From Nitrosopumilus sp. (GTDB lineage Archaea > Thermoproteota > Nitrososphaeria > Nitrososphaerales > Nitrosopumilaceae): 64,000 nucleotides of DNA. The stretch is from assembly GCA_965218695.1 (NCBI GenBank), contig OZ244651.1:1760001-1824000 (forward strand). Reading direction: 5' to 3'. This document shows positions 7,389-51,269 of this stretch, in pieces. Under the pieces are notes generated by a model. That model was given only the letters and a program-made list of their open reading frames with translations. It searched no databases and was not told where the DNA came from. The first letter of the stretch is position 1; each line of letters opens with the position of its first letter. The position numbers were made by a program, and so were the translations under genes.

Positions 7389-7389
7389 A

Positions 7390-13351: not shown

Positions 13352-13452
13352 AAATTATGTAAATCTGTAGGGACATCAACACACGGCAAGAACTAGGGAA
13401 AGACATCCTGCTTGTTCGCTATTTTTTTAAGCAAAGTCTTATACGCCTAGTC

Positions 13453-14871: not shown

Positions 14872-15016
14872 TATTTCACAGGGACAGCTTGGACCAGCTT
14901 AACCTATTCCTTCAAAAACATGATTGATTTTTGCCTTGATAATTACTCCTGTGATCTTTATCTTTTTTTTTGCAGGTTTTATGGCTCCGTCCAGAGTTTT
15001 GGCAAATTAAAAAAAG

Positions 15017-16542: not shown

Positions 16543-17651
16543 AAAAAAAGGAATCGTATTTGGTATTATATTTTTTGGAACAACAGCAGTGTTTTTTGAA
16601 TTGTTTACTCCTTGGGATTGTTTTGGTGAATCTTTATATTTACTGGCTTGTGAGTAATTTTTGTGGATTGTTGGATTAGTAGCGACATGCGTGGTATTTA
16701 GTTCCATCTACAAACCCAGTAGTCGGAAATTTACCCCTTAGGCAGGTCCCCCGACATCATACGGTTGACCCACAATCCTACATAATTCCAATGCAGCCAT
16801 GGCCGCAGCATATGCGACAAGCGCCAGAGTCACCCGATCATAACTCGAATCCGCACGGTACTGCTCCACTGCCCACGTGTTGTACATGAACAGCGAGACG
16901 TAAAACATGATTGCCCTAAACGACGCATTGCGGCTTGTCGTCCTCGGACGCACCTGCTCTACCTGCTTGTATCCTGTCTCTATCCCCCACCTTCTCCTGT
17001 ACTCCTCTGGAAGCGTCTCAATCTCGTCTAGCGCCCTGGCAGGGGAAAGGTTGGTGGCAAAGACATGGTATCTTTCCGTGGCATCGGCATCAGGATCGTC
17101 TATCTTTTTTGAGGGCGTGATTATCAACGTGAATGTAACAGACTGGCCTGCTGCGTTTCTGAGGGTGTACCGTGAGACTGCCCTGCGTGATTTATCGTGG
17201 TGCTCCCGTATCGCCCTCTTCATCCCCACGTTCTTGACTGCCGGCATCAGGAACTTGCGCCTTTGTTCGGATACAAGCCTGATTATCTCAGTCGAGTAAA
17301 ACTCGCGGTCCATCAGCAGCAGCCGGGCCCGTATCCTGTAATCCCTGAGTTTTTGCATGAATTTACGCACAAAATCGGCGTTGTCCACGCTGCGCGTGAC
17401 CTGCATGCACTCCAAAATGGCCGGAACCTGCTCTGCTACCACGTGCATTGTCGCATAGCACTCGAACCTGCCTGTACCGCCCTTTGGTTTGGACCATATC
17501 AGGTGTGACATGTTGTCCTTGTCGTGCCTTGGTATCAGGTGCTTGTCTATTGCCACCAGTACGCCTCCCTTGTACCGGCACGTATTCTTGGCAAGCCTTG
17601 CGGTGCGTGTGAGCATGTCCCTGCAGAGTTCGTCTGCACCGTCTGATTCTA

Positions 17652-18753: not shown

Positions 18754-19339
18754 TAGCGAGTTTACCATGTTGCGAAACCACTTGGGTGACGGCATCTTCT
18801 TTTTGGCATGCTTGAGCAGCCTGATTGCCTCCTCGGAGGCTATGTTGGATTCAGACATCTTCATCAGTATGGCTGCAAACTCGCCCACCCCGTATTGGGC
18901 ATTGTTCCCAGTAGGGAATCCTATGGGTGCAGACCACAGTATTCCTGACAAGGTATTAAGCATCCTTTCTCCGATCTTGTTACGGTGTACCTGCCCACCT
19001 TTTTGCGCAAACACTAGGGTGGGCAAGGACGCCGTAGATAATAGATCCGTATGCTCGAAAAATGTTAACACGTCTGCGAACATCTGTTGGATGGCTTAGA
19101 GGGTAAATTTCCGACTACTGATACTAGCTAAAAGCATAAATTCGTGCGCCCAAACATTATTTTTTGAGGAAAACACGCCCCATTTCCAGACATGATGGTG
19201 CCTACAAGCATGCTACGATAACACAATCACGGAAATTGGCAACAGGTTAGACTGCATGAACTTATGCGCGTCGCTATAGGTTCATACAAGTTTACATAAT
19301 CCGTGATAGAAACTGTTTTGTATTGATGTGTCTTGAAAC

Positions 19340-31410: not shown

Positions 31411-34400
31411 TTGTCACCTATTACTTCAGAAGATAAAACAATTCCAAACGTTCCCAGCCCACTGGCCACAGGTGGCGCCGGAACAGCCTTTGAGCAGCAT
31501 GTGGGGGCCATGTTTCTTGCGCTCCTACTCACACGCGGGATTCCGGCTGTATTCAGAGACTGTCAAGTAGAGAAAGTCGGTTTTCAGACGCAATATCTTG
31601 GATGGGAGACTGACGACCTTCTTGCCACATGCTCAACGGACGCAGACGGGAGCCGCCAACTGGCAATACAAGCCAAACGTACGTTTACTGTTGGAAGTAG
31701 TTCGCCTGATTGTGTCAAAACATTCCAAGGATTCTGGAAGGATTTCAAGGCGGCAGGGGGATTCAACCCTGACAAGGACGCACTCCTGCTAGCCACGTTG
31801 CACAGCACCAGTGCTTTAAAAGGGCTCGGTAATCTGTTGGAATGTGCCCGGAACTCACCTAACGTAGAAGACTTTGGAGATAGGCTGAATGCCCCAGGAT
31901 TCTTGTCTAAGCCGGCAAAGGATTGCCAGCAGGTAATCAGAACCGCCATTGAAGAATTGGATTCTTCTGAGGTGGACGAGGCGGAATTCTGGCGTTTTCT
32001 CAAGACGATCCATATCCTATTCCTCGACTTTACTACATCAACTGCTCAACAGGAAGCTATGTGCAAGTATCAACTGGCTCTGGCTGCGGATAGCTCAAAT
32101 GCAGCAAGTACCGCAGAATCTACTTGGAATAAGCTCTTGGAAATTTCCTCTGCATGCGCATCAGGGGCGCGAGTATACAGTCGCTCTGACTTGCCTAGTG
32201 ACATGTGCGCATCACATGATGCCATCCAACCTCCCCGAACCACGCTACAGCCCCTGATTGAGCATTCAGACATTACTTTGGATGCAATCAGAACAACTAT
32301 TTCAGGCGTAACACTGCCGCGCAGGAAAACGATTACAAAGGCAATTGAGGCACTCGCCGAGAATCAGGCAGTCATATTGACAGGCTCGCCAGGCTCTGGA
32401 AAGTCTGTACTTGCCAAAACGCTAATTCGGCAGCAGGCAAGTGACTATTTCTGCCTGTCTTTTAGGGCCGAAGAGTTTGCAGAGAGCCATATTGACCCGG
32501 TACTGCACGGCTCGGTAACTGGCAAGCAGTTTGCGGTTCTTCTGGGCGCGCAAGAACGGGTCTTGATACATGTGGAAAGTTTTGAACGCCTGCTTGAGCA
32601 CACTACACGCGATGCGTTTACTGACTTGGTCACGATGGCAGAACAGCATCCAAACATTAGGCTGCTGCTGACATGCAGAGACCATTCCATTGGCACCGCC
32701 TTGGCAGCGTTTTTTGAGCAAACCGAATTGACGCGTGACGTGGTCGAAGTACCGCTGCTTGACGAAGATGAAGCGGTACAAGTCGCCAGCAACTTTCCCA
32801 ATATCGTGAATCTCATATCCAACCCTAGATTAAAACGGATTTTGTGCGTTCCGTATCTTCTTGACATGGCGGCAAGAATGGACTGGTCTGAACAACAGGA
32901 CATGCCACAAGACAGCAGGTCCTTTCTGGAAAAATGCTGGAGCAACGTTATCCGAAAAGACAGCATGACATCTGCGGGATTGCCTGACCGGCGCGAACGC
33001 GCCCTTGTTGAACTTGCGGTGCGCCGCGCTCGTGAATTGCGTCCTTTCGTTTCGACGGACGGAATTGATGTTGATGCACTTGACTGGTTGTACAAAGACG
33101 GCATTGTGTTAAAAGAAAGGCAAGGATTTGCCGCACCGGCGCACGACGTCATTGAAGACTGGGCAATAATACGATGGATCGAATCGCTTGCTACAAGGCA
33201 CGAATGGCAGGCTTGCCCAATATCTGAGGATGTCAGCTGGCACCCTGCTATCCGTCGGGGATTTCGCGAGTGGTTGAAGGATAATCTGGATGCAGGCTTC
33301 GAGAAGGCATACAGATTTGTGCTCTCCGCATACAGAGCCGATTCTCTTCCCCAACACTTTCGAGACGACGTGCTGGTTTCAATGTTGCTTTCCAATTCCG
33401 CGGGGGAGTTTATTTTGCGTCAAAAAGACGAAATGCTGGCCGATGATGCTCGACTGTTTGCTAGATTGATACATCTGGTGCGTGTTGCGTGTAAAAAAGT
33501 CGTAAAACGATCAGGAATATCAAATATGCCGCTATCTGTATTGCTTACGCCGGAAGGGGATGCGTGGCAGGCATTACTGGAGGCAGTCGCCGATGAACTT
33601 GACCGGCTGTTACCCAAACACAGAGGATCGATACTTGGACTGCTTGAGGACTGGGCGGATGGAGCAGACGCGGATTCATCAACGCCAGACGCAGTCTCGT
33701 TTGGCAGGATAGCATACCAGCTGCTCAATCAGTTGGAAGACTATCGTGATGATGACGTTCGAGGGCAGATTCTAAAGGCCATTGCAAAAGTGCCCCATGC
33801 CGACGATGAAAGATTCATCGATCTGATTGAGCGGGCATCAATTAGATCAAAGCGACGTGACCTTCTGGCAAGGGAATTTAGTGAACTTCTGATCAGCACG
33901 TGGGATGGAGCCCCAGCGTGCAGATGTTTCCCAAAACATATGGCCAAACTTACTCGGTTCATGTGCTGCCTATCGGAACATGGCATTAGGCCCGAATCCG
34001 ATTTTGACGCATTCTTACACACCGAGCCATATTTCGGATTGAGATTCAACGCTCATTTCCGTTTCTTGCCTAGTGCCATTCGAGGCCCGTTTTTCTCCTT
34101 GTTGTTCTATCATCCACAAATCGGCCTTCAGCTTGTCCTGGATATAGTCAATCATGCGGGAGATTGGTATGGAAATCGCAGATGGCCTAGGACCAGATTG
34201 GAGCCAGCATACCAAATCACAATTTCAACTTCCGGTGGAGAGGTTCAGCAATGGGCAAATGACATCCTTTGGCAGGCATATCGAGGAAAGCGTCCCATTC
34301 CCAATGTCATCCAATGCGCGCTTATGGCCCTTGAGCATTGGCTGCTGAAGATGTGTAAAGACTCAATTCCTGTTGAGCATTGGCTGCTGAAGATACTAAA

Positions 34401-36480
34401 AGAGAGTAATAACGTAATGACTACCGCAGTAGTGGCAAGCGTGTGTAATGCTTATCCTGACCTTTGTGGCACGGTGGCATTCTCTTTCATCAAGTCCAAG
34501 AAATGCATTGAACTGGATAATCAGCGGGTGTCAAATGAACACGAATTCAGATTAGCATTATCACTCAGTTTTCATCCTGCAGATCAGATTTACTTTGATG
34601 AACGCAAAAGATCAAACGCACTGGAACATCGTCAGCGCAATCTTGAGACTCTGGCACTCTATCTGCAATCGAGAGGGCAAGCAAGACAGATCCATAATAT
34701 TATTGACGGCCATCTGGCAGAGATGCCTCCCGAGGTCCAAAGGACAGACGAGGACAGAGCTTGGCTGTTGGCATTACGCCGGATGGATTTCAGGCGCCTG
34801 AAGGTTGCCAACGCGTCATTCTCTTCTGAAGGCAATGATTCAGAAAACAAATCTGCAAAGAGCGTGACCATGTCCCTCGTACCCAAAAACTTGGATCCTG
34901 ATGTCCAAAACCTTGTCAACGCCAGAGCCGAGGAACACAGTCAGTATGTCGATATGTTATCACCATTAAATTGGGGACTTGGGCAGTGGGATCGAAACTC
35001 CGAGAAGAAGGATATCGATTCTTGGCGGGATTTCCTTACCAAGGCACGAGATACGCACCAAATGGAAACAACAGCAGGCTTGGGATGGATTCTAAAAAGC
35101 GGCAGGGGAATAATTGCCGCCGTGTGTGTCCGGGATCATCTGGAAGACATGGAAGCCGATGACCTGCGATGGTGCATCGACACACTCATTGCCGAGGTTG
35201 GACAGGATAATGAAAGCGAAGATCCCGTAGTCAACACATCTAACAACCCTACGAGTCCCGACATGCATGCGGCCTACGTTTTGCCAAAGATCCTATCTTG
35301 CAATCAGAATGATGCGGAAATCTTGAAAGCCGTCATCAGGGCAGTCACTCATCCATCACCAGAAGTTTCGGCTTGGGCGGCAGAGGGGATTGCAAAGTAT
35401 CTGGGACCTGAGCATCAGAATACAGTGCTCAGCTGCATTGGGGCAGTCGCCATGCACTCAAATCTTTTAGTGCAAGATGAACAACTACAAACTCAAAGAA
35501 GAATGCAGGGAATTTTTGAAGAGCGTGATTCAGAAAACATGCGAGAACGGGTCAGGAAAGAGTGCATCCAAGGCTCCATCAACGTGGAGCAGGAATTGGC
35601 AGGCATTGATCCCGTGTCTGGGTATGGATGGTACGCTACCGAGCGCATTTTGGCAATGTTGGGCACGTCACAGGATTTTGTCATTACAAAAGACATCGTT
35701 ACGGAGACCGGGCAGGCTGTCGTGAGGGCGTGGTCTGCCACACATGAGGATCATGATACCGCGGTAGGTTCTCAGTCCGTTCTCTCCGCGGTAGATAAGT
35801 TAACGAGTATCGTTTTGACCATGACGCCCGACGCAGCACTGCATTGCTGCAAACCGTTCTTGAATGCGGTGGATGAACATCCAGACGAGGTGGACGACTT
35901 TATTGGGATGCTAATAATACATGAGTACAGGCAGAATTCTGACGAAACTTGCTTCTGGACTTTGTGGCAGGCCTTCGCTGATCGCATAATCGATGCGCAG
36001 TGGTCTTGCAGGATTAGCTCCAGTCGTTCGGTTGGAAAAAAACTGATAGACAAAATGCTGTTTGGAACACATTGGAAGAATGGACTACGAGATTGGCACT
36101 CCCTTGCTGATCACAGGCATCAGATCAATGCATTTATGACCAGCCTGCCTGCCGTGTCACCAGTATTGATGGGATTTGCCCACTACATTTACCACCTGGG
36201 GGGAAGAACGCTGCCAGACGATTTTATAGTAGTAGCTGACCGTCTGCAGGCGGGAGACCCAGCAGAATTGTTCAGTAAGCGAAGCACCATCCTTTATCTG
36301 GAGCCTCTTCTTCAACAATACGTTTACGGTCAACCAGCAGTCCTAAAAACAGACCCAAATTTGCGAACGGCCACCCTTACAATTCTAGACCGACTTGTAG
36401 ATGCAGGATCTTCCGGGGCATACAGGATGCGTGATGATTTCGTGACCCCGGGGGCAGATTCGTCTAACTCTCAAGCATGA
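31411..36480 (+). CDS. Large STAND/NACHT-like NTPase with an N-terminal PD-(D/E)XK nuclease (Avs/AVAST-like antiviral protein)
   Basis: TGGAGTAFE...TDD...QAKR nuclease-like N-terminus; Walker A GSPGSGKS; VLIHVES Walker B region; long helical C-terminus ending LDRLVDAGSSGAYRMRD. Confidence 0.75.
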   Translation: MSPITSEDKTIPNVPSPLATGGAGTAFEQHVGAMFLALLLTRGIPAVFRDCQVEKVGFQTQYLGWETDDLLATCSTDADGSRQLAIQAKRTFTVGSSSPDCVKTFQGFWKDFKAAGGFNPDKDALLLATLHSTSALKGLGNLLECARNSPNVEDFGDRLNAPGFLSKPAKDCQQVIRTAIEELDSSEVDEAEFWRFLKTIHILFLDFTTSTAQQEAMCKYQLALAADSSNAASTAESTWNKLLEISSACASGARVYSRSDLPSDMCASHDAIQPPRTTLQPLIEHSDITLDAIRTTISGVTLPRRKTITKAIEALAENQAVILTGSPGSGKSVLAKTLIRQQASDYFCLSFRAEEFAESHIDPVLHGSVTGKQFAVLLGAQERVLIHVESFERLLEHTTRDAFTDLVTMAEQHPNIRLLLTCRDHSIGTALAAFFEQTELTRDVVEVPLLDEDEAVQVASNFPNIVNLISNPRLKRILCVPYLLDMAARMDWSEQQDMPQDSRSFLEKCWSNVIRKDSMTSAGLPDRRERALVELAVRRARELRPFVSTDGIDVDALDWLYKDGIVLKERQGFAAPAHDVIEDWAIIRWIESLATRHEWQACPISEDVSWHPAIRRGFREWLKDNLDAGFEKAYRFVLSAYRADSLPQHFRDDVLVSMLLSNSAGEFILRQKDEMLADDARLFARLIHLVRVACKKVVKRSGISNMPLSVLLTPEGDAWQALLEAVADELDRLLPKHRGSILGLLEDWADGADADSSTPDAVSFGRIAYQLLNQLEDYRDDDVRGQILKAIAKVPHADDERFIDLIERASIRSKRRDLLAREFSELLISTWDGAPACRCFPKHMAKLTRFMCCLSEHGIRPESDFDAFLHTEPYFGLRFNAHFRFLPSAIRGPFFSLLFYHPQIGLQLVLDIVNHAGDWYGNRRWPRTRLEPAYQITISTSGGEVQQWANDILWQAYRGKRPIPNVIQCALMALEHWLLKMCKDSIPVEHWLLKILKESNNVMTTAVVASVCNAYPDLCGTVAFSFIKSKKCIELDNQRVSNEHEFRLALSLSFHPADQIYFDERKRSNALEHRQRNLETLALYLQSRGQARQIHNIIDGHLAEMPPEVQRTDEDRAWLLALRRMDFRRLKVANASFSSEGNDSENKSAKSVTMSLVPKNLDPDVQNLVNARAEEHSQYVDMLSPLNWGLGQWDRNSEKKDIDSWRDFLTKARDTHQMETTAGLGWILKSGRGIIAAVCVRDHLEDMEADDLRWCIDTLIAEVGQDNESEDPVVNTSNNPTSPDMHAAYVLPKILSCNQNDAEILKAVIRAVTHPSPEVSAWAAEGIAKYLGPEHQNTVLSCIGAVAMHSNLLVQDEQLQTQRRMQGIFEERDSENMRERVRKECIQGSINVEQELAGIDPVSGYGWYATERILAMLGTSQDFVITKDIVTETGQAVVRAWSATHEDHDTAVGSQSVLSAVDKLTSIVLTMTPDAALHCCKPFLNAVDEHPDEVDDFIGMLIIHEYRQNSDETCFWTLWQAFADRIIDAQWSCRISSSRSVGKKLIDKMLFGTHWKNGLRDWHSLADHRHQINAFMTSLPAVSPVLMGFAHYIYHLGGRTLPDDFIVVADRLQAGDPAELFSKRSTILYLEPLLQQYVYGQPAVLKTDPNLRTATLTILDRLVDAGSSGAYRMRDDFVTPGADSSNSQA

Positions 36481-36651: not shown

Positions 36652-37602
36652 ATGGCCGTAATGACCCCACTGAAAAGACGTTTAACCCAAACCATTCCAA
36701 TCAACTTGTTGGATTATGATTCGCTGCACCACTTCATCAAGTACAAGATGAGCATGACGCACGTCTACCAGCCAATCATGATACGTACGCTGCTGGAATC
36801 CGAGGACTGCAAGGCGACCCGAGAGGCGATTGCAAGGCAGTTCTTGGGCATGGACGAGTCCCAGTTGAACTACTACAAGGCGATAACTGCAAGGTGGCCG
36901 CACAAGACGCTGAAGGGGCACGGGATAGTAGAGTACGAAAGGAGGGGACAGGTGTACACCCTGCTTCTTGACGGCGCGACGGCAGGGCAGAAGGAGAGGC
37001 TGACGGAGCTGTGCGACCGCAGGCTTCACGAGTTCATCGACAGGGATCCGGCGATACGGCGATTGCGGGAGCATGACAGGCGCTCGCGTTCCGGCAGCCT
37101 CAGGTACGACGTCTTGGCAAAGTCCCGGGGCTTCTGCGCCGCATGCGGCGTTTCGTCCGCTGAGGCGCTGCTGCACGTAGACCACATAATACCGATCAGC
37201 TGGAATGGCAAAGACCAAATGGACAACATGCAGGCGCTGTGCTACAAGTGCAACACCCAGAAAAGGGACAGGGACGATACGGACTTTTTGCTGTGGCGCA
37301 AGAGGCTCCAGTTCAGGAAACCCGGATGTGCCATGTGTTCCAACGAGGCACACGCGCTTGGGAACGACCTGGCGTACTGCGTTCTGGGAGGGGCAGGCGA
37401 TCCTTCGATGGTGGTCCCCCGGAGGCATGCATTATCGTTCATGGATCTGATACCTGCCGAACGGCACCTCTGCATCGCGCTGGCGGATCGCGCCGTGCGG
37501 TGCTTGAAGGAACAACACGGGCGCGTGGCAGATTTTGACGTGAGGTTCGACGTGCCTGCCGACCACTACTCCATCAGGATCGCCCCAACAAGCAGGCAGT
37601 GA
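36652..37602 (+). CDS. HNH endonuclease with a degenerate C-terminal HIT-like domain
   Basis: HVYQPIMI; CAACG...LHVDHIIP...NMQALCYKCNTQK; then CAMC...SMVVPRRH with no HxHxH triad. Confidence 0.8.
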   Translation: MAVMTPLKRRLTQTIPINLLDYDSLHHFIKYKMSMTHVYQPIMIRTLLESEDCKATREAIARQFLGMDESQLNYYKAITARWPHKTLKGHGIVEYERRGQVYTLLLDGATAGQKERLTELCDRRLHEFIDRDPAIRRLREHDRRSRSGSLRYDVLAKSRGFCAACGVSSAEALLHVDHIIPISWNGKDQMDNMQALCYKCNTQKRDRDDTDFLLWRKRLQFRKPGCAMCSNEAHALGNDLAYCVLGGAGDPSMVVPRRHALSFMDLIPAERHLCIALADRAVRCLKEQHGRVADFDVRFDVPADHYSIRIAPTSRQ

Positions 37603-37835: not shown

Positions 37836-38507
37836 ATGGGATCCGATCCGAACAAGCTGGCCGTACTGGTTGACGGAGACAATGCGTACTTGGAGTACAT
37901 CGAACGCGTGATGGCCCATGCCGGCCGGCACGGCCAGGTGGTGGCCCGCCGCATCTACGGCGCCCACGACAAGATAGACAGTTATTTGGAATGCATCAAG
38001 TGCCACGGGTTCAAGCCTACATACGCGGAAGGCCAGAACGCCGCGGATACCAACCTGATAATAAATGCAATGGATATGTTCCGCTCCAAAGTGGCCGACG
38101 GCTACTGCATAGTAACGAGCGACAATGACTTTGCCGAACTGGTCAAGCGACTCCACAAGGAAGGGGCATTCGTGGCAGGGATCGGGGCGTTGGACAAGGA
38201 AATATCGCCGTTCAAGGACGCATGCGACGACTTTACGTATTTCGAAGATCTGCCCCCGCCGGACGACCAGGATCCGGCCATCCGGGAATTTGTGCATGGT
38301 TGGGAGGAGGCAGTCAAGGAAGCCATCCGCGCGTGCGCGAAAGAGGACGGATGGACCTTTCTCTCGGATATCGGGAACAGGTTGAGGGGCGCTGGATACG
38401 ACCTTAATCCTGCCGCCCATTGCCACAAGGGACAGATGTCATTAATTGGGTCATGCCCGGAGTTTGAAATAAGGGCAGAATCGAATCAGGTACGACTGCG
38501 GCAGTAG
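37836..38507 (+). CDS. NYN (LabA/DUF88) domain protein with a C-terminal OST-HTH/LOTUS domain
   Basis: LAVLVDGDN, RRIYG, NAADTNLIINAMD, TSDNDF, ACDDF; DGWTFLSDIG. Confidence 0.85.
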   Translation: MGSDPNKLAVLVDGDNAYLEYIERVMAHAGRHGQVVARRIYGAHDKIDSYLECIKCHGFKPTYAEGQNAADTNLIINAMDMFRSKVADGYCIVTSDNDFAELVKRLHKEGAFVAGIGALDKEISPFKDACDDFTYFEDLPPPDDQDPAIREFVHGWEEAVKEAIRACAKEDGWTFLSDIGNRLRGAGYDLNPAAHCHKGQMSLIGSCPEFEIRAESNQVRLRQ

Positions 38508-39545
38508 CAACCACGATCCGGCTATCCGGACGGCAGTCTAACACTGGACAAGGTTCTGTAAAATCTGCGGGTGGTGGGATCGGTTGTTGACGAAGGACAA
38601 GACCGAGGCCTTGGACAAACCGGGGTTGAGGTACTGCCCAATCCGGACGCGCTAGTTCGAGCCGGCGTAAGACAGACACCATCCCACAATGTACGCCGTC
38701 CCACCATTCTACAAAGTCTGCCATGCAATCCGACTCTTCCTTTGGGGGCTCCGCCGGACACGGTGAGATGAAGCATTCCAGCGGCCTCATTCGGGTGGAA
38801 CGCGCAACTTTCTTGGACTGCATACCGAAGGGGTTCGGAGGATCCGGGCTTGTGGAAGCGTGATGGTGCCGACGGCTTCAAGGAATGGGCGATTCAGGAG
38901 GGAATTGCTCAGGAGGGAATTGCTCATTTCTGGACCTGTTACTTTGACTATTCTTTCTCCTGACAATGCCATTCCTTGACCACGGAAGTTTCTGAAAATA
39001 CTCATTCCTTGAGACGTACTAGTCATTCATGGACGATTCCATACCATGCCCCGAAACGTTCCATGGTGAACTATTCCGTGACATGCGGGGCTTGTTATTC
39101 CAATCCAGAAGATCCATTCCATGGAATCATTCCACGATTACGTTTGAGGATGCCGTTTTCATGGAACCCTTCCTTGTCATGTTGTGGGTCAAAACGGGGG
39201 GGCATGTCATGTCATGCCAGACGCCGAAGGCGTCTGGACGTCCACGTAAGGCTCGAGTCGGGTTGTGCCATGCCGGCCTTATGACATGTTGGGATGAGCG
39301 GCCCTATGGGCCGCTGGGACAAGCCCGGCTTATGCCGGACTGAAGTATACAGGCTGTACCATATCGGACTTGGGTCCGACTACCATGCCAGTCGAGGTGC
39401 GGGTGCCAATGAATCCGGAGTGCCATTGGGAACCGGGTGTGTTCATGTGCGGCCAGAAGCGGGGGCCTGCGTGCTAATAGCAGTCAGGACAAGCCAGATG
39501 ACTGCGGACTTTGTGAAAAAAGATCGGAACTATTCATGTACCAAG

Positions 39546-40136
39546 CTAACCGAAGGCGTTCGGGCCTTCGAGCGGACCCTCTCTGTCTCTCCTCAACATC
39601 TCTTTCTTGACGGCCTTCTTGATCCTCTCTGGGGTGTAGTACGGATTTGCTTCCTTGAACTTCTTTAGGAGCTCCTTCTTGGTCTTGAGGCGTTCAGCCG
39701 ACTTGATGTGACTTATTCCCTTGTGGATCAGGGTTATCATGTCTGGGTTGGGATAGGCCAACAGTTTGCCGTCCTTTTCCTCGATCCATATGTCGGGCTC
39801 TAGGTTGAACTGTTTGGCCTTTTCCTTGATTCTGGGGAATGACTTCCGAACGTACGCCTCCGTCGTGCGACGTCTGAGGGATTGTACGGTGAACTCTTCC
39901 CGACATTCGAGGTGCGTCTTTTGGTTGTTGCTCGTGATGTCGGATTTTGGGATGATCTCATCACAGTGTACACAGATTTTGCGATCCTCGACCTTTATCA
40001 CGTCGGAGCATTCCAAATGGCGATCCTGCCCTTCGTAAGTGATGTGCGTAGAGTCCATTATGTCGTCACATACGACGCAGATTCTCGGCTTGAATTTTGG
40101 CCACTTTATTGTGGGTTTGGATTTTCTTCTGCCCAT
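39546..40136 (-). CDS. Hypothetical protein with two CxxC...HxxC zinc-finger repeats
   Basis: CVVCDD...RHLEC and CVHCDE...THLEC. Confidence 0.65.
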   Translation of the reverse strand: MGRRKSKPTIKWPKFKPRICVVCDDIMDSTHITYEGQDRHLECSDVIKVEDRKICVHCDEIIPKSDITSNNQKTHLECREEFTVQSLRRRTTEAYVRKSFPRIKEKAKQFNLEPDIWIEEKDGKLLAYPNPDMITLIHKGISHIKSAERLKTKKELLKKFKEANPYYTPERIKKAVKKEMLRRDREGPLEGPNAFG

Positions 40137-40199
40137 ACATTTGAAAAAACTTTAGTTCTATTATATAGTTGCGAGTTTACAATTAGACTGTATATCAGG

Positions 40200-40345
40200 C
40201 CTTATCCGGAAGAACTGCCTTCCGTTCCGGGCAATCGAGCCGTACGCTACGATCCTCTTGTGGTTGCTTGCGTATGGCACGTTTATGAAACGACCTGCCA
40301 TAGACCAATATTGACGGTCGACTATCACGTCGGGCACGAAAATTA
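40200..40345 (-). pseudogene. IS630 transposase fragment
   Basis: YWSMAGRFINVPYASNHKRIVAYGSIARNGRQFFR vs YWSPVGVPITVPYTGSHKRITAYGSITMDGRQFFR in 17661-18674. Confidence 0.75.
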
Positions 40346-40371
40346 CCTGGGACAAGCGCATAAACGCCCAG

Positions 40372-40479
40372 ATCAAAACGGCGAATCCATCAAAACAAGG
40401 ATTGAAACCTCAAAAGATGGACGTCTCCAGGGATGAGACCGAGTCAAAACGACGAATCCATCAAAACAAGGATTGAAAC
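40372..40479 (+). CRISPR. Mini-CRISPR array: two 37-bp repeats and one 34-bp spacer; no cas genes in the window
   Basis: Repeats RTCAAAACGRCGAATCCATCAAAACAAGGATTGAAAC at 40372-40408 and 40443-40479 (2 mismatches); ATTGAAAC 3' end; spacer CTCAAAAGATGGACGTCTCCAGGGATGAGACCGA. Confidence 0.82.
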
Positions 40480-40596
40480 AACCACGCCGGTCACGCCGGT
40501 CACACGTTCAGGCAGTGTCCCAATTTTAGACTATTATTTTGCCTAGCTTACAATATAGTGTTATTCAGAATAATATTTATTTCAAGAACGGTCAAT

Positions 40597-41472
40597 ATGG
40601 CCATGCCCCGCCGTGCCAAAAAAGAGCTCCGCAACTTCACCCGCTCACTAAGGCTCGTCAAGCGATCCATCCGCCTCAACATACCCAGCTTTGTCAGCCG
40701 ATCCCTGTGCGTCAATCCCGGCGACCGCTTGGAGTGGTCGTTGAAATCCGGCATCCTCTGGTTCCGGATCGGTTCCGGGCCGAACAAGTTCTTCCTGCAA
40801 GGGCGCTCCCTGTACTGCACCGTCCCCATGAACTTGGCCAAATCTGCCGGATACTGGGACGGCGACTGGGTGCGGTTGAACGTGTACAGGGACGACTACC
40901 CGTTAGCCATATCCCTATCCCGCGCCAAACCGCCGCCCCCCGGCACGTTCGTCCGAGACAGGTGGAAGGAGGAAGAACGCGAGTGGGACAAAATGGTCGA
41001 TGAACTACGCCGGATCGAAGACGATAACAAGCGCCTGAAGAGAGAGAAATATGAATTGGAATTCGAGGTGAGACGCTTGAGGGCCACGGTAAGAGGGTAC
41101 AAGATCGGCGGTTCGTTCTCAGATTCGTGGTGGCTAGAGAAGCTTGACAAGATGAAAGATAACGTGGAAGGACCCCTGAAGGAAAAATTCGCCCGCGAAT
41201 TCGGCAAGGAATGGTGGCTCAACCCGTACTTCATCGCATCCAGCGTCGAATTTTTAAATATCACACCCAGCCGTAACTTGGAGGCACACTTTGCCGGCCT
41301 GCTGGCTAATTTCGACCTTGACGATCCGGGCATCGACAGGATAGAGGTTGAGGCGTACCGCCCCGTGCTAGAGATGGTCAAGTCCGGCATGTCACTGGCA
41401 GAAGCCGTGGCCTCCAACATACGGGCTTTCGCGGCTAGATCTTCAGGATCATCACCCCGTAGGTCTTTCTGA
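40597..41472 (+). CDS. Protein with tandem AbrB/MazE-like domains and a coiled coil
   Basis: SIRLNIPSFVSRSLCVNPGDRLEW and SLYCTVPMNLAKSAGYWDGDWVRL. Confidence 0.65.
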   Translation: MAMPRRAKKELRNFTRSLRLVKRSIRLNIPSFVSRSLCVNPGDRLEWSLKSGILWFRIGSGPNKFFLQGRSLYCTVPMNLAKSAGYWDGDWVRLNVYRDDYPLAISLSRAKPPPPGTFVRDRWKEEEREWDKMVDELRRIEDDNKRLKREKYELEFEVRRLRATVRGYKIGGSFSDSWWLEKLDKMKDNVEGPLKEKFAREFGKEWWLNPYFIASSVEFLNITPSRNLEAHFAGLLANFDLDDPGIDRIEVEAYRPVLEMVKSGMSLAEAVASNIRAFAARSSGSSPRRSF

Positions 41473-41983
41473 TTCCCGAATCCCCGTCACACGGGGCAGA
41501 CATGGCATTTGCAAGGCTCCCGCAAGCGACTGTAAGGGAACGAGCGGGGCTCGATTCGCGCGTTCTCAGGATCCTGTCAGAATCTCACCTGTCATCTATC
41601 CCCCGCGCGCCCGGCCCCGTCACGCAGGCAGCTTGGAGTGCCAAGCATGGGAGAAACGACCCGCAGGCAAGCAAACCGTCAGGATCCCGGGGCATCCGCG
41701 AAGGCTTTGTACAATGGGTCGAACACCTGAGTACGGGTGCGGCCTCGTGGGGCAGAACTCGGCGGCATCTCACTGCTACCCTTCTTGCGGCATTCCCTGC
41801 ACCCGACGCATCAGAGGATCATTGGCGCCGACCAAGGCACGCCATGGATGGACGCGCTTCGGGACCGGGCTGCACGGGGAGCGAGTCACGGCGCACAGTT
41901 GCGTTTCCCCGCAGAGGGAAAACGGATTCGTGGAAAGCGGCAGACGTTCCCGTTTCCTGCCAGGCCGCGGCACGCACAACACG

Positions 41984-42190
41984 TCACGCCTCGGGATCGT
42001 AGGTTCCTGCCCTGACGGACTTTGATATCTTGCTGACCTTGGGACGGGAGATCGGCCGGTTCCAATAGGGCGACCGGCAACTTCGCACGCGGCAGCTGCC
42101 CGGCGGCTTGGTGCCTTTCAAGATCGTCCAAGTCCCACCGCACCGTTCGCAGGTGCACTTGATGGCCGTGACCGTGATCTCTTCCATCAT
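41984..42190 (-). CDS. Small zinc-ribbon protein of the kind seen in archaeal viruses and plasmids
   Basis: CERCGGTW...PGSC...CRSPYWN. Confidence 0.7.
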   Translation of the reverse strand: MMEEITVTAIKCTCERCGGTWTILKGTKPPGSCRVRSCRSPYWNRPISRPKVSKISKSVRAGTYDPEA

Positions 42191-42372
42191 GACACTACGT
42201 GTGCCATGTGTGACATATAGCACTTTTTAGTCCAGTGTGCGTTTTCCATGCGCCATCATGACATGCATAAAAATGAAAGATGTGGTGGGTCAAAAGGGCA
42301 TCAGAATGTTGTGCTAGCAGGAATCATAACTGTTCGGGAATCTCACCTTCATCTTGAAAATATATGCTCCAC

Positions 42373-42398
42373 ATGGTACATGTTTATATATGTACCAT
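42373..42398. promoter_or_regulatory. Palindromic operator candidate enclosing a TATA box
   Basis: ATGGTACAT-GTTTATAT-ATGTACCAT upstream of ATG 42413. Confidence 0.6.
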
Positions 42399-42412
42399 AC
42401 GGTATATGTTAT

Positions 42413-42658
42413 ATGAAAACACAGGCCGCAGCGATCAACCGAAACGGAAGTGCAGGTGAATTTTTCTACAAAAACGCCTGTACTGCTCCTGTCAATACCA
42501 CTTTAAGAGTAGCAAAATGCCATGTGTCCCCGGTGGAACACATCCTAACAGAAGGCATGGCAGACGCCCACAAGCGATTCGTCGTCGAATTAGGACAAGA
42601 CGATAGGCAACCGGATGCCTGCCAGACGGGACGGCTCCGGGAGGCTGGCAAGCGATGA
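42413..42658 (+). CDS. Hypothetical protein, first gene of the replication-like operon
   Basis: ATG downstream of the TATA box; ATGA overlap with the next gene. Confidence 0.5.
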   Translation: MKTQAAAINRNGSAGEFFYKNACTAPVNTTLRVAKCHVSPVEHILTEGMADAHKRFVVELGQDDRQPDACQTGRLREAGKR

Positions 42659-42972
42659 CCCACTACGCCGTTCGGCTCTACACGGATCAATTAGTCAAGG
42701 TTCACAGCACGCGGATCGAGTGCGGCCGGAAAGACATCCCGGGCATGCTTGCCTGCGTCGTGATACACTACCTCAAGGACGCCCCCTATCCGGGGGCCAT
42801 GCAGGCCCGCGTCATAGTCGGCAGGCGCTACACCGAATACGTGATCCGGCTGAAAAACGACGCTCTGGACGTGTACCGCCACGTATTGCGGGCCAACAGG
42901 GCGGAGGTACAGGAGCACCCCGCCGGTTCCGCGGCGCCTCTAGATGGAGAGGAAGAGGGTGCAGCCCGGTGA
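42655..42972 (+). CDS. Hypothetical protein (paralog 1)
   Basis: YAVRLYT...TRIEC..DIP...YLKDAPYPG...IRLKN...VYRHV shared with the next gene. Confidence 0.75.
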   Translation: MTHYAVRLYTDQLVKVHSTRIECGRKDIPGMLACVVIHYLKDAPYPGAMQARVIVGRRYTEYVIRLKNDALDVYRHVLRANRAEVQEHPAGSAAPLDGEEEGAAR

Positions 42973-43232
42973 CCCGCTACGCAGTTCGACTCTACACAAA
43001 CGGGGGAGATCGTATCCGGGGCACGCGGATTGAATGCAGCAGGAGGGACATCCCGGACTGTCTGGCAGATATCGCGATGGACTACCTGAGGGATGCCCCG
43101 TATCCGGGCATCATCCAAGCCCTGGTCAACGTCGGCCGGAACTATACGCAATACTTGATCCGGCTTAAAAATAACACCGTGACGGTATACCGCCACGTAT
43201 TCCAATGCGACATGGAAGGGGTGCAGGAATGA
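42969..43232 (+). CDS. Hypothetical protein (paralog 2)
   Basis: GTGA overlap with paralog 1 and clear similarity to it. Confidence 0.75.
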   Translation: MTRYAVRLYTNGGDRIRGTRIECSRRDIPDCLADIAMDYLRDAPYPGIIQALVNVGRNYTQYLIRLKNNTVTVYRHVFQCDMEGVQE

Positions 43233-43317
43233 TGCAGGCTGCGTGCATCCGCGTCAGGCAGAACGCCGACGAGCCGTTTCTGACGCGTGCCGACAGGATG
43301 AACACGGAGCCGGCGCC

Positions 43318-44703
43318 ATGATCCTCTGGTGCACCAAGTGCAGGGAATTCCGCAAGAAGAACACGCCTGACTGGTCCGAGTGCAGGTACTCGTCCCGGCA
43401 CACGCTGGTGCCGGGCCACGAGAGGATGGAAAAGGAGCTGCGGCAGGTAAGGGAGAGGATCACCGCTTCCGGCAAGCCTCGCGACGAAGATCTCAAGAGG
43501 CTCGGCGCGCTCGAGGCCGTCAAGAACGCCGAGTCCGACAGCGACGACGAGAGGGGGCACATAGCTGCTGTGGCAGACGGGATGATCGCCGGGCACGCGT
43601 GCGTGGAGCGTGACCCCGGCGGGGCGTTCTTTTGGATGAAAAGCGGCGGCTCGTGGTACCTGTTCCGGCACGATGACGGCATGGTGACGGATCTGATCCA
43701 GGCCGGGTACTTTCGGAAGTACGGCGTGGTGGCGCCCGACTATTACGTGACGACTGCGCTGGCCTCGCACAGGCTGCGCGCCAAGTTTGATGGGCTGCGC
43801 GTGGACCGCGTCTGGAAGCGCGCCGGCTTTGACGGCCGCACGCTGTGGGTGGATCTGGGCGGGCAGCCCCGGCGCCTGTACGGGATATCTGCCGAAAAAC
43901 ACGGACCTGTCATCCCGTATTCCCCGGACGTGCGCGTGGTGATCGAGCGGCACGGAGCCGCGATGCCCGAACCCGAGCGGGGAGGCGAGGGGTGGCTGGA
44001 GAAGTTTCGCGCCATGCTGCGCGTGCGGGAGGAGCAGGCGGAGCTGTTCTGCGCGCACCTCTGCCACATGTTCTGCGCACACCACCAAACCCCCGCGATG
44101 CTGTTCTCCGGCCCGCCAGGCTCCGGCAAGACGGCGGTCGCCCGCCTCGTGCGGGAGTTGGTGGATCCGGTCGGGTTTGAATACGCCGTCGCGGTGCTGC
44201 CAAAGTCGGCAGATAGCCTGCGCAGGATCCTGGCAGGATCGCCGGCGGCATCGTTTGACAACGTGCGGCAGTTAAGCAGGGAGTCAGCCGACGCGATGTC
44301 GGGAGCGCTGGAAGGGCTGGCGATGATTGCAGGCGTGCAAAAGCATCCTGCATCTTTTGGCAACGTCCGCCTCGTAATGGCCGCGCCGGAAGGCAGACCA
44401 GCACGGCTGCATTCCCTGGAAGGCAAGACCGTCCGGTACGAGCTGTCGCCGGTGGAAGAGTGGAAGACCATGGGCGAGATGGCAGCCGATTTTTACGCCA
44501 TGAGGCCGCACCTGTACCACGAGATGTTCGACGTCCTGCACCGCGCCTTCGGGGATTCCCCGGTTGCCCGGCCATCCACCCGGATGGCCGACTTTGAGGT
44601 GCTGGGACGCTCCATTGCAAAACATGCCGGGCACGATGCAGACGGGTTTGTCGGATCTCTTCGTTTTGCGTTGTTGGATGGGACGATGCCGGGCACATCC
44701 TGA
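43318..44703 (+). CDS. P-loop ATPase, SF3/D5-like replication helicase candidate with an N-terminal zinc motif
   Basis: CTKC...C....H; GPPGSGKT; SFDNV; RMADF. Confidence 0.7.
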   Translation: MILWCTKCREFRKKNTPDWSECRYSSRHTLVPGHERMEKELRQVRERITASGKPRDEDLKRLGALEAVKNAESDSDDERGHIAAVADGMIAGHACVERDPGGAFFWMKSGGSWYLFRHDDGMVTDLIQAGYFRKYGVVAPDYYVTTALASHRLRAKFDGLRVDRVWKRAGFDGRTLWVDLGGQPRRLYGISAEKHGPVIPYSPDVRVVIERHGAAMPEPERGGEGWLEKFRAMLRVREEQAELFCAHLCHMFCAHHQTPAMLFSGPPGSGKTAVARLVRELVDPVGFEYAVAVLPKSADSLRRILAGSPAASFDNVRQLSRESADAMSGALEGLAMIAGVQKHPASFGNVRLVMAAPEGRPARLHSLEGKTVRYELSPVEEWKTMGEMAADFYAMRPHLYHEMFDVLHRAFGDSPVARPSTRMADFEVLGRSIAKHAGHDADGFVGSLRFALLDGTMPGTS

Positions 44704-45466
44704 CCGACGGCAATCAATCCGGTTCAAGCCTAGTGTTTTTGCACGCCTTTTCGAGTTCTTCCCGTTTTATGTCGTTCATGTACCCAAGTAATGAGATCTG
44801 ATCCACAGTCTTTTCGATTAACTATTCAGGAACTTACGTGTCGCTATACTAGACTGTGCCGATGACATTCTCGGACAAAGACATCAGATGCGATCAGGCA
44901 AAGCGACTACAAGTGAGCAAAAGGAGACACGCCGTTCCAATAGACCGTGGTTTCAAAAAGTCCTTCAATGTAATGATAGGGCACGCCAAGGCGAAGTACC
45001 GGGGTAAGGAGGCATGGATGAGGCACGGTCATGAAAACCGTTCTTTTCATCATGTGTGCTGCCGGCTACAGCTGAAATGACTGCATTTTCCATCAACCAT
45101 GGGTCAACCTCCATTCAATGATCAGACATTTAACTCTGGAAACGCATCTGAGAGTAGTGATTAAAGCAACAGGTGGGACGATTTTGGCGGTCATGTTATT
45201 GATTGCCTTGTTTGGTTCACTTCCAGGTGGCGATGTGGTAGACTCTAAATCTGCTGCAACCAACGCGCAACAGAACATTGCAACTGATACAGTTGTCAAA
45301 ACAGGAGGTAAAGTAATCAATACATTAGAAGATATGCGTAATCCACCCATTTTGCCAACCCGGCCATAAAAAACCGGAAAAATACGGCCTAAAACTGCTC
45401 GTGTCGTGTATGTGGCAAGTCCGTTCACCCCAAAATCCAAAATGACGTGCGCAGCCTTGCAGCACT

Positions 45467-46810
45467 TCATCGTGCCCTGAATTCTACTTGACCGGAGCTT
45501 CGGAGCAGGCCCTGTCCCAGTCTACTGACGTCTTCCACTGCCCTGGCGGTGGCGGACCCTTTTCCATGCAGTCCCACAATGTTCAGGTTTACCAGCCCGG
45601 TGATCACGTTAAACTCCCTGTTGAACTGGGCCGCGTTGCCGTCGTACGGGTCGGCAAGACGCGCGTAGCGCTTGAGCCTGCCTATCGTGTGCTCCACCAA
45701 TACCCGGGTGGAGTTGATCCTGTGGTTGTGCTTTTTTTGCTCCGGCGTCAGCGGCGTGTCCCTGGTCTTCTTGTGCGGGATCTCCGGCGTGGTGCCGGGC
45801 AGGTGGTCTGCGATTCCCTGGTAGCCGCGGTCGACGAAGGGGTGGCACCTGTCTGATTCTGGCAGGTCCGGATCGTGCATCGCCTCCTCCCACTTTCCAA
45901 ACGGCATGGGGCGTTCCTTGAGCAGCGTGATGTCGCCGACTGACCCGACGGTGCTTTTTGATATGCCGATCACCACCCCGTCCCGGTTGGTGTACACGTT
46001 GGTATTGTTGGTGAACTTTTTCTTCTTACCGGAGTATCCCATGCGCCGGACTGACTTTACAGACGGGCGCTGCACGGGGCAGTGCGTGCCGTCTATGAAT
46101 ATCTCGCCCCCGTCGGGTCCGGGCACGATCTTCTTGAAATCCTCCCTGGTCGGGGCAGCAGCTACCTCCTCGGATATGTTGTCTGCCGTCGGAAGTATTC
46201 CTGCCAGCATCGCATCCATCACCGGAATGTACCGGGACACGGTGGTCTGGTCTATCCCGAAGAATGCGGCAAGCACGCCTTGGGCGGGGTTGTCCTTTTT
46301 GCGGATAAGTGCTAGGAGCAGTGCGTGTCTCAGGTACAGTTTGCACCGGTTTCCGGGATCGGATGTCCGGGATGCGTCATCGCGGAACAGCGGCATCTGG
46401 CCCGAATGCGTCAGAAACGCCTTGGCCCGCTCCAGCATGTACCGGAACTGTTCCCCGTCTGCCAGCGTGACATGGCGGAGCTTGTCCCCGTCGCGTATTA
46501 TGCCGTCTAGCACCTCTAGCAGGTGCAACGCGGGCCCCTTGCCGGGGTTCCAGCCATCGTTCCTGCCCTTCCACAGGCCGCGTTCAAGGCCCAACTCCCT
46601 GTCTTTCTGTTCCAGCTTTTTGTCTTTCTGCTTTAGAATATTTTTTAGGCTTCTGTCTTTCTGTTCCAGCTTTTTGTCTTTCTGCTTTAGAATATTTTTT
46701 AGGCTTCTGTCTTTCTGTTCCAGCTTTTTGTCTTTCTGCTTTAGAATATTTTTTAGGCTTCTGTTTTCTTGTTCCAATCTGTGCATGATCTGATCAGGCG
46801 AGTCTGGCAT
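45467..46810 (-). CDS. IS5-family transposase
   Basis: IDGTH, YSGKKK, DRGY, RVLVEHTIGRLK; paralog of 23124-24437. Confidence 0.88.
   Translation of the reverse strand: MPDSPDQIMHRLEQENRSLKNILKQKDKKLEQKDRSLKNILKQKDKKLEQKDRSLKNILKQKDKKLEQKDRELGLERGLWKGRNDGWNPGKGPALHLLEVLDGIIRDGDKLRHVTLADGEQFRYMLERAKAFLTHSGQMPLFRDDASRTSDPGNRCKLYLRHALLLALIRKKDNPAQGVLAAFFGIDQTTVSRYIPVMDAMLAGILPTADNISEEVAAAPTREDFKKIVPGPDGGEIFIDGTHCPVQRPSVKSVRRMGYSGKKKKFTNNTNVYTNRDGVVIGISKSTVGSVGDITLLKERPMPFGKWEEAMHDPDLPESDRCHPFVDRGYQGIADHLPGTTPEIPHKKTRDTPLTPEQKKHNHRINSTRVLVEHTIGRLKRYARLADPYDGNAAQFNREFNVITGLVNLNIVGLHGKGSATARAVEDVSRLGQGLLRSSGQVEFRAR
46599..46760. repeat. 54-bp tandem repeat x3 encoding RSLKNILKQKDKKLEQKD
   Basis: Read directly. 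Confidence 0.9.
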
Positions 46811-49549: not shown

Positions 49550-51157
49550 CTAGTCGTTCCCGTGTCTCGGATCGTGGCCCTCGGACAGGTCGCCGTCGTA
49601 CTCCTTGTTCCTGGCCTCGTACTCTGCCAGCGGGTCGCCCTTTACGTCCGGGCGCTTGGACAGCCTGCGCACCATGTCCTCCAAGACGCTTATCTTCTTG
49701 TTCTGCCTGGCAGTCACCTCCTCGATGTTGGCCCGGTGGATTTCCTCCATCTGGAGCAGGAGCGCCTTCAGGGCGTCCGTCTCGCTTGCCACCGCCCCGT
49801 CCTTCTTCGTGGCCTTGGGCCTCTTGAGGACGTTTCCCATTCCGAACATCTTGAGGCGCAGATTCTCCAAGTCCTCCACCTTCTTTTCCAGCCGCGCCAT
49901 CTTGGCGTCTTTTTCCGGCTGGGCCTCGGCGGCGCTGGCTGCCACATCCAGCAGTTCCTTGGCCCGGGCCATCTGCTTTCGCAGTTCGGCCTCGTGGACC
50001 TCCTTCTCCGACTCGAGGTTCCGTATGTTCTCGGACATGCGTCGGGTGGACTGCTTGAGCCTGGTCGCGTCGCTTACCGTCAGGTCCGGCACGACTGCCA
50101 GGTACTCCTGCGCAAGCTCCAGCACGGAGGTCTTGAAATAGTTCTGGTCAAGCGAGATCATCCCCTTGTGTCCCATCATGAACTCCTTTTTTATCAGCGA
50201 GGCAAGCGGCGAATCGGACGAGAGCGCCTCCTTGCACGTCTTGTTGTAGAACCGCCTGAACCCGTTGGTGAGTGGGACGTTGTGCCTCCTGGACTTGCCC
50301 GTATTGGGAGGACGCAGCTTGGCGTGCGTCACTATCCTGTCCAGCCGCTTTTTGACTGACTGCATCGAGGCCCTCTTGGGGATGCCCCTAATGGCAAGGA
50401 ATATCGGATCCTTCGGGCCTGGCTGTCGTCCCATGTGGTCTGCCCACGTGAGTCCGTACACCTTGAGGGATTCGTACGCCTCCGGGGTTATGAAGGCCAT
50501 GTAGTTTGCCGCCGAGCCCCGGTACACCTGCAGCATGGCGCACGCGACTTCGCAGGCCTCTGCCCCGGGATCCAACACGAGATTGCCGTTGACGCGGTAT
50601 ATCGGCACCAAGTCTTCCCAGTTCAGGTCTATCCCGCCTATGCGCGCGCCCGAGCTTGACAGCACCAGCACCAGCGCCTGTTCCATGGGATCGCGCGCGT
50701 GTTTGAGCATCATGCTTATTTCTTCCCTTGACCACCCACGCGATTCCTGGATGTTGTCAAGTTCCGGGTACGTCGCGTAGAGCCGCTTCCACGGCATCAC
50801 GATATCGTTCATGTCGAATAGTTTCTTGATCGGCTTGAAGTAGTTGCCAAACGTGGTCGGGTTGAGGTAGTCCGGATCGTCCTTGGGCAGGGTGGTCCTC
50901 TCCCGCAGCTTCCTAGACAGGTTAAGCAGCAGGTCGCGCGTCCACTCCTGGTCCTCCCTGCCGTGTTTTACCAGCTGCGCCACGCGCTCCTCGAAGTCGC
51001 CTTCGAGTATCTCCTCAAAGTACTGGCACAGTATCTGGCGCAGCGTCCGGGTGTACTTTTCCTGGGTGTACTTTGCCTTTATGCCCTGCATGAACAGCTC
51101 CAGCGGCGCCGCGTCCCCGCTCCTGACGATCTCGTCTTTTGTCAATCTCACACACAT
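49550..51157 (-). CDS. Tyrosine recombinase/integrase with a C-terminal coiled coil
   Basis: SSGARIG (R), NGFRRF, MMGH, QNYF (Y); starts 34 bp after the tRNA att. Confidence 0.88.
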   Translation of the reverse strand: MCVRLTKDEIVRSGDAAPLELFMQGIKAKYTQEKYTRTLRQILCQYFEEILEGDFEERVAQLVKHGREDQEWTRDLLLNLSRKLRERTTLPKDDPDYLNPTTFGNYFKPIKKLFDMNDIVMPWKRLYATYPELDNIQESRGWSREEISMMLKHARDPMEQALVLVLSSSGARIGGIDLNWEDLVPIYRVNGNLVLDPGAEACEVACAMLQVYRGSAANYMAFITPEAYESLKVYGLTWADHMGRQPGPKDPIFLAIRGIPKRASMQSVKKRLDRIVTHAKLRPPNTGKSRRHNVPLTNGFRRFYNKTCKEALSSDSPLASLIKKEFMMGHKGMISLDQNYFKTSVLELAQEYLAVVPDLTVSDATRLKQSTRRMSENIRNLESEKEVHEAELRKQMARAKELLDVAASAAEAQPEKDAKMARLEKKVEDLENLRLKMFGMGNVLKRPKATKKDGAVASETDALKALLLQMEEIHRANIEEVTARQNKKISVLEDMVRRLSKRPDVKGDPLAEYEARNKEYDGDLSEGHDPRHGND

Positions 51158-51195
51158 GAATACGTGTGGAACCTATAAAAGTTCTTTAAAGGTAG

Positions 51196-51269
51196 CGGGT
51201 CTAGAGGGATTCGAACCCTCGACACCAGGATTAAGAGTCCTGCGCGCTACCTGGCTGCGCCATAGACCC
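51196..51269 (-). tRNA. tRNA-Lys (anticodon CTT); integration target
   Basis: GGGTCTA/TAGACCC acceptor stem, CAGGA-CTCTTAA-TCCTG anticodon arm, GTTCGAATC T-loop, no encoded CCA. Confidence 0.95.

Follow-up and report, generated by a model that had tools for sequence, protein, structure and literature searches.

What is a CRISPR repeat-spacer-repeat unit worth to a mobile element whose host has no detectable cas genes? The question is raised by positions 40372-40479 of the window (the whole stretch of DNA that we analysed, 64,000 nucleotides long), where two CRISPR-type repeats enclose one spacer. The initial annotation proposed that the unit belongs to an integrated element and uses host CRISPR machinery in trans; as an alternative, it considered the stump of a longer array, pointing to an IS630 scar directly upstream. 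We find that the alternative fits better, as there are neither cas genes nor a leader. Because the host lacks detectable cas genes, the array most likely remains from a defence module that was lost, rather than serving this host as a working weapon.

The unit itself is composed of three parts:

40372..40408, plus strand: CRISPR repeat 1, 37 nt (Rfam CRISPR-DR7, 44.6 bits)
40409..40442, plus strand: the single spacer, 34 nt, no target found (from the sequence and the target searches)
40443..40479, plus strand: CRISPR repeat 2, 37 nt (CRISPR-DR7, 45.0 bits; 34/37 identical to the repeats of type I-B arrays in relatives)

The two direct repeats are identical in the window sequence at 35 of their 37 positions, repeats 1 and 2 having A and G, respectively, at position 1 and G and A at position 10. 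Each contains an AATCC...GGATT stem and carries ATTGAAAC at its 3´ end. An automated repeat search of the window returned practically the same pair (40373-40408 and 40444-40479, 36 nt, 97%, spacing 71), and both copies match the Rfam family RF01320, CRISPR-DR7, on the plus strand over its full length (1-37), with scores above the gathering score of 37. The 26-nt core of the repeat is present twice in the window, the expectation from 100 shuffles being 0.00. These Rfam matches and shuffles rule out a chance repeat. A coding tandem repeat was also considered and rejected: the open reading frame that crosses repeat 1 (39882-40436) spans the IS fragment as well and has no family match. Outside the array, the core was not found in the 2.63-Mb genome even with 3 mismatches allowed, so that comparison of the repeat with host arrays yields no further copy. 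A degenerate third repeat was sought on both sides of the array, where the best identity was 13/37 (random median 14). A CRISPR array is expected to have a unique spacer of ~30-40 nt between direct repeats, and this is what we see, at the minimum number of units. The locus is exactly one bona fide CRISPR repeat-spacer-repeat unit.

The initial annotation had thus described the repeats, stem and spacer correctly, which sequence, repeat search and Rfam all bear out. Its interpretation of the 3´ end as the 8-nt Cas6 handle AUUGAAAC is likewise sound, the enzyme family being specifically Cas6b of type I-B systems. According to excerpts of PMC3479195, 37-nt type I-B repeats are cut by Cas6b, which gives crRNAs with an 8-nt 5´ AUUGAAAC tag.

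Is there anything in the host that could make use of such RNA? The host genome (G000) belongs to an ammonia-oxidising archaeon (archaeal AmoA at E 3.4e-116). Its assembly comprises 2.63 Mb in 9 contigs, the largest of 2.46 Mb, with 52.8% G+C and an estimated completeness of 99.99%. We searched the whole genome in six frames with models of Cas1 (PF01867), Cas6_C (PF01881), RAMP (PF03787), Cas6b_C (PF17262), Cas2 (PF09827), Cas7/Csh2 (TIGR02590) and Cas5 (PF09704). There were 0 matches, and the controls were positive. Nine proteins of the cas locus of a relative, G099, gave with tblastn a best E of 0.011 in the host genome, due to a generic helicase match. Crude k-mer scans of the host genome revealed no second CRISPR-like array; the periods of other periodic repeats in the host are divisible by three, which gives them the look of coding repeats. 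That no cas genes lie within the 64 kb had been noticed before, and by model and tblastn searches the same holds for the entire genome. As far as sequence searches of a 9-contig assembly can tell, the host is without machinery for the array. The proposal of in-trans use had itself been made dependent on a Cas6 or an effector in the host. Since neither was found, nor any host array with the same repeat, it is not supported for the present host.

Elsewhere in the genus, cas genes do occur: Cas1 was found in 42/100 other genomes, Cas6_C in 6/100 and Cas6b_C in 14/150. Cas1 of the genus is often present in several copies of ~410-420 aa, or as fused proteins of ~560-578 aa, and has a casposon-like look. 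The G+C content under one genus label is spread unusually widely, with 31-43% at loci L020-L024 and L063-L065 compared with 52.8% in the host genome, 57% at the G002 locus and 50% at the G018 locus.

Members of the repeat family are also found in relatives. Several genomes labelled as the same genus or family (G099 with 132 copies, G123, G383, G029 and others) contain large arrays with a uniform repeat, GTCAAAA[T/A]GACAAATCCATCATAACAAGGATTGAAAC, which is identical to repeat 2 at 34/37 positions. Matches to the repeat with up to 3 mismatches were obtained in 9/400 other family genomes. Among the matches listed, every one outside the host genome has exactly 3 mismatches and none has the repeat variant of the host array. 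Among the repeats listed within the arrays of relatives there are no differences, while the host pair differs at 2/37 positions. The 132-repeat array of G099 directly follows a cas7(Csh2)-cas5b-cas3-cas6b-cas1-cas2-cas4 locus, and its Cas6b (216 aa) matches PF17262 at 1e-36 together with PF17955. Exact searches with the 26-nt core found, in a collection of genome contigs, only two arrays of bacterial MAGs with different 5´ halves, which says nothing on the origin of the repeat; the repeat cores had no exact match in a collection of viral contigs.

Small isolated arrays are present in two of the relatives. In G095 (C1:43915-44023; locus L023, 9915-10023), another isolated unit of two repeats and one spacer belongs to the same repeat family. 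An IS6/IS240-type transposase gene precedes it by ~1.6 kb, the cas locus of its own genome is 1.5 Mb away, and the array at that cas locus (~67 repeats) has a repeat different from that of the isolated unit. In G036 (C2; locus L024, 10489-10660), an isolated array of three repeats with a different 5´ half is situated ~470 nt past a split IS630-type transposase (HTH and DDE_3), far from cas1 and cas6 of the same genome.

The spacer could tell against what the unit was once directed. It has ~54% G+C (measured on 35 nt, including position 40443), like the host lineage and unlike the ~31-37% G+C relatives that bear the large arrays. Given this composition, it was probably acquired from high-G+C DNA. 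The initial annotation had seen no protospacer in the window, and our searches agree: the longest exact match in the inserted DNA is 10 nt and the best non-self match in the own genome (blastn-short) 13 nt, both at chance level. Searches of viral, plasmid and host sequences, suggested along with the annotation, returned no target either. In detail, there was no match to phages, no match with up to 3 mismatches in 150 genus genomes, and two chance matches to plasmids (E 0.3 and 4). Viral contigs contained neither the 35-nt nor the 34-nt string of the spacer, and metagenome contigs did not contain the 35-nt one, in scans that required exact matching and covered collections in which the mobilome of the host lineage is barely sampled; the 35-nt query includes one repeat base and could miss a perfect 34-nt protospacer in the metagenome contigs. 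Neither the 23 nt that precede repeat 1 nor the 35 nt that follow repeat 2 had an exact match in viral contigs.

Next to the unit, the following features are found:

39546..40136, minus strand: left neighbour, a basic Cys-rich protein of 196 aa, no known family
40140..40204, no strand: A+T-rich intergenic DNA, the sole promoter-like stretch upstream of the array (putative, by eye)
40205..40348, minus strand: internal fragment of an IS630-family transposase (~81% identity, alignment)
40349..40371, plus strand: gap of 23 nt between IS and repeat, not leader-like (alignment; leader comparison)
40597..41472, plus strand: right neighbour, a protein of 291 aa, no known family

The IS630 scar directly upstream is real. 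Its ~145 nt are ~81% identical to C1:935149-935292 of the host genome and to C1:1282452-1282595 of G002, and the gene matched there encodes a transposase of 337 aa with DDE_3 (3.4e-20) and HTH_32. The fragment represents an internal part of this gene on the minus strand, without IS ends; it must have been trimmed by at least two deletions. IS homology stops at 40348 in the alignment, 23 nt ahead of repeat 1. An A+T-rich leader with a promoter is expected before the first repeat of a CRISPR array, and here it is missing: the 23 nt have 61% G+C and are unlike the leaders of G099 and G123, which are rich in A+T. Possibly, they are the 3´ remainder of a truncated older spacer. The A+T-rich stretch at 40140-40204 lies beyond the IS fragment and adjoins the start of the divergent 196-aa gene.

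The neighbouring genes are of little help. The downstream gene had been called AbrB-like, which we could not confirm: the 291-aa protein has no Pfam match at E<=0.1 and its AlphaFold model has a pLDDT of 44. One relative (P0005), encoded on a 7.3-kb contig, exists among 5.8 billion proteins, and none was found in viral contigs, metagenome contigs or 400 genomes of the class. Neither PHROGs nor PADLOC matched the immediate neighbours of the array; the 196-aa protein is without a Pfam match as well. Within 38500-43300, DNA matches in 100 genus genomes are limited to the repeats and the IS fragment.

Another claim of the initial annotation, that the array resides on an integrated element, is well founded, as there is an insert at a tRNA gene that is absent from the same site in G002 and carries a candidate integrase-like gene. 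Two features mark its edge:

49550..51157, minus strand: candidate integrase-like gene (535 aa) at the edge of the insert (ESM Atlas lead)
51195..51269, minus strand: tRNA-Lys(CTT), where the element is integrated (from 51193 on, synteny with G002 is restored)

G002 is ~89-94% identical to the host in shared DNA. Window positions 1-5511 correspond to G002:438180-443570, and segments 13408-14871, 11412-11764 and 9337-9681 to G002:443587-446886 in inverted orientation. At this site G002 has 1.28 kb of unrelated DNA and then tRNA-Lys, and synteny is back at window position 51193. By this break in synteny, the array-bearing DNA (roughly from 15-19 kb to 51192) is missing at the same site of G002. 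The corresponding site of G018 holds ~6 kb of different DNA and a partial homolog of the 535-aa gene beside the tRNA. The 535-aa gene has no Pfam match of its own; its ESM Atlas feature score is 0.98 to Nitrososphaerota clusters, of which 37-53% of members have PF00589.

The 3´ end of tRNA-Lys (51191-51213) has an exact 23-nt copy in inverted orientation at 9183-9205. This copy is probably the second att site, which would have been flipped by IS-mediated inversion between inverted IS copies. Two inverted IS pairs are present (6088-7388 with 16717-17651; 9682-11207 with 15017-16545), and a segment of ~9.2-14.9 kb is inverted relative to G002. The region 5500-19000 is dense with IS copies, and several of them, such as those at 7390-9039 and 11753-13353, have 94-99% identical copies at many places in G002.

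The insert is defence-laden cargo DNA. A protein of 1689 aa encoded at 31411-36480 is Avs4 according to PADLOC (E 2.5e-147, nearly the whole profile), a gene for an HNH nuclease follows it (36652-37602), and an EcoRII-C-like protein is also encoded in the insert. A 486-aa ATPase gene (43223-44816) recurs on contig C2 of the host (12975-14568; 83.5% nt and 80% aa identity), and besides this gene contig C2 and the element have almost nothing in common. Contig C2 also has a tRNA-Lys-like match of 64 nt. The k-mer scan further picked up a three-copy short-period repeat at 46598-46748, in or beside a DDE_Tnp_4 transposase gene (45467-46810).

We consider it probable, though far from certain, that what the element carries is the stump of a type I-B array and that this stump is inert. 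In the original setting, Cas6b would cleave each repeat of the pre-crRNA 8 nt from its end, yielding a crRNA composed of the 5´ AUUGAAAC tag, the 34-nt spacer and a 3´ remnant of the repeat, to be loaded into type I-B Cascade. Cas6b processing and Cascade loading are established for this repeat family. Later on, the leader, the remaining array and any cas genes would have been lost; on the leader side, an IS630-family insertion followed by deletions could account for what is left. As nothing in the present host appears to process or use RNA of the array, the unit is most likely inert there.

Several observations favour the stump. Firstly, the repeats are genuine members of the CRISPR-DR7 family, close (34/37) to the G099-type arrays; the array has no leader, and searches of its 99.99%-complete host showed no cas genes. 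Secondly, the leader side has been remodelled, with a trimmed IS fragment abutting repeat 1. Further, the two repeats have already diverged from one another (2/37), and the spacer has no detectable target. Finally, an insert at tRNA-Lys with Avs4 and HNH fits the precedent of thaumarchaeal integrated elements.

Other observations speak against the stump. Both repeats keep an intact stem and 8-nt tag, and they differ in the 5´ third only. The repeats are well preserved and decay is therefore slight, which could equally mean recent acquisition or maintenance. Natural CRISPR repeats at the trailer end are often degenerate, and the terminal repeat of the G123 array is so; the last repeat of our unit is not degenerate. 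By analogy, leaderless mini-arrays of phages, which are possibly functional in the account excerpted from PMC6858448, might argue for activity here too. The last point concerns metagenomes. The locus itself was recovered in four DNA runs of one study, with no variant in the array, and one run of a second study contains identical pieces of 151 nt at depth 2. In run X1, a contig of 102 nt aligns over 40444-40479 and combines a related repeat (5 differences in 36) with a different spacer, at a depth of 40.8 compared with 9.1 for the host locus. A second CRISPR array of the same broad family is present in that sample, so that a Cas-bearing organism or replicon may share the habitat.

The strongest competitor of the stump, itself rather unlikely, is a portable mini-array or decoy: a crRNA gene with one spacer that acts in trans when the element enters a relative with Cas6b and Cascade, or together with a co-resident element. 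It would exclude a competing element or titrate Cas proteins, and in a Cas-less host it would merely be carried. In favour of this, the unit has one spacer, its repeats retain hairpin and tag, and it is located on an integrated element without cas genes. Potential partners exist, considering that Cas6b is found in 14/150 other genomes of the genus, with repeats of the same broad family, and that a related repeat occurs in the same sample (X1). The 54% G+C spacer probably comes from high-G+C DNA similar to that of the host lineage, not from the ~31-37% G+C relatives. Moreover, mini-arrays of mobile elements and viruses, as well as stand-alone arrays, are known, including those of thaumarchaeal elements (in the available parts of PMC6563490, PMC6858448 and PMC11656645). 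However, published mini-arrays match the system of their host exactly in the repeat, as stated in PMC11656645, and our host has no such system. Among the matches listed outside the host in the 400 family genomes, all are 3 mismatches away, and the repeat cores have no exact match in viral contigs. There is also no target and no leader, and the IS fragment abuts the array. The more specific idea that the element keeps the single-spacer crRNA gene, as portable ammunition or a Cas-titrating decoy, silent in Cas-less hosts and active when the element enters, or is in one cell with, a carrier of a Cas6b type I-B system, seems to us quite improbable; if it were true, elements of ammonia-oxidising archaea would shuttle between Cas-bearing and Cas-less hosts, with CRISPR parts kept under selection in both.

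Very little speaks for a matching CRISPR-Cas system that is present in the host or its population and missing from the assembly, in which case the mini-array would work as proposed in the initial annotation. Loci of cas genes and arrays do often assemble poorly, the genome is in 9 contigs, and a related repeat with another spacer is present in run X1 (depth 40.8 against 9.1). Yet the completeness is 99.99% with one contig of 2.46 Mb, all seven cas family searches and tblastn came back blank, and the X1 repeat differs at 5/36 positions and has a depth unlike that of the host. The nearest relatives seen, G002 and G018, are single contigs and likewise gave no Cas1 and no Cas6.

A role independent of Cas, in which the hairpins would for instance mark transcript ends, stabilise transcripts or form a regulatory RNA acting on the 291-aa gene, is hardly credible: the array does end ~117-118 nt before the ATG of this gene, in the same orientation, but no evidence points to such a role, the 5-bp stem is weak, control of the CreTA type requires Cascade, which is absent here, the longest exact spacer match in the insert (10 nt) is at chance level, and there are no conserved relatives for covariation. 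Two more special modules were considered and rejected. A CreTA-like toxin module repressed by crRNA is contradicted by the lack of Cascade genes and of any partial match (10 nt at the longest in the insert), and an RNA anti-CRISPR made of a solitary repeat by the presence of two repeats with a spacer and by a host without Cas.

How does the probable stump compare with known systems? Orphan CRISPR arrays share with it a genuine unit, a genome without cas genes and an adjoining IS remnant; our unit differs in its minimal size and in its location, which is an integrated element instead of a chromosomal site that once held cas genes. The thaumarchaeal integrated elements NCAV2-E1, NitIsl-E1, NitVie-E4 and NitEve-E4 carry type I-B CRISPR-Cas or stand-alone arrays, and the excerpted text of PMC6563490 proposes that the stand-alone arrays originated from the cas-bearing ones through loss of cas genes. 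With these elements our unit shares the phylum, the integrated element as carrier and the type I-B repeat family. In the same excerpts, however, the stand-alone arrays have 69-96 spacers and a host type I-B system with an identical repeat, whereas our unit has a single spacer and no system in its host. The repeats themselves resemble, in 37-nt length, short hairpin and AUUGAAAC-giving 3´ end, the Cas6b type I-B repeats of M. maripaludis and C. thermocellum (as given in the excerpts of PMC3479195). Unlike in these two species, no Cas6b was found in the host genome, and processing of the repeats is therefore not expected. Were Cas proteins present, the unit would function as Cas6b type I-B crRNA genes generally do.

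Mini-arrays and RNA anti-CRISPRs are more distant. The mini-arrays of SPV1 and SPV2 from Sulfolobales are similar in having 1-2 spacers in an intergenic position on an element without cas genes (excerpts of PMC6858448 and PMC11656645). In contrast, they have host-like leaders with promoters, host-matching repeats and spacers against sister viruses, judging by the portion of PMC6858448 available, and none of the three was found here. The definition of MGE-borne mini-arrays by Medvedeva et al. 2019 requires a mobile element that lacks cas genes and carries 1-2 spacers, as is the case here; it also requires repeats equal or nearly equal to those of the host system, whereas our host has none. The unit fails to show two defining features of MGE mini-arrays, host-matching repeats and a leader. 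RNA anti-CRISPRs also consist of a CRISPR repeat on a cas-less mobile element; Racrs, in the abstract of PMC10651486, are single repeats directed against Cas of the infected host, while our unit has two repeats and a spacer in a host without Cas.

The most suitable place for the unit is among orphan array remnants on thaumarchaeal integrated elements, a kind that is already known. It is one more example of CRISPR parts travelling on such elements, which is known to happen. If it is a remnant, it represents a small historical marker, showing that the element or its ancestor formerly coexisted with a type I-B CRISPR system, within a lineage of high-G+C, IS-rich ammonia oxidisers that is now without CRISPR-Cas. 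If, on the other hand, the unit should prove to be processed, or conserved with turnover of its spacer, then mini-arrays of mobile elements would be known from mesophilic ammonia oxidisers too, and from hosts that lack Cas.
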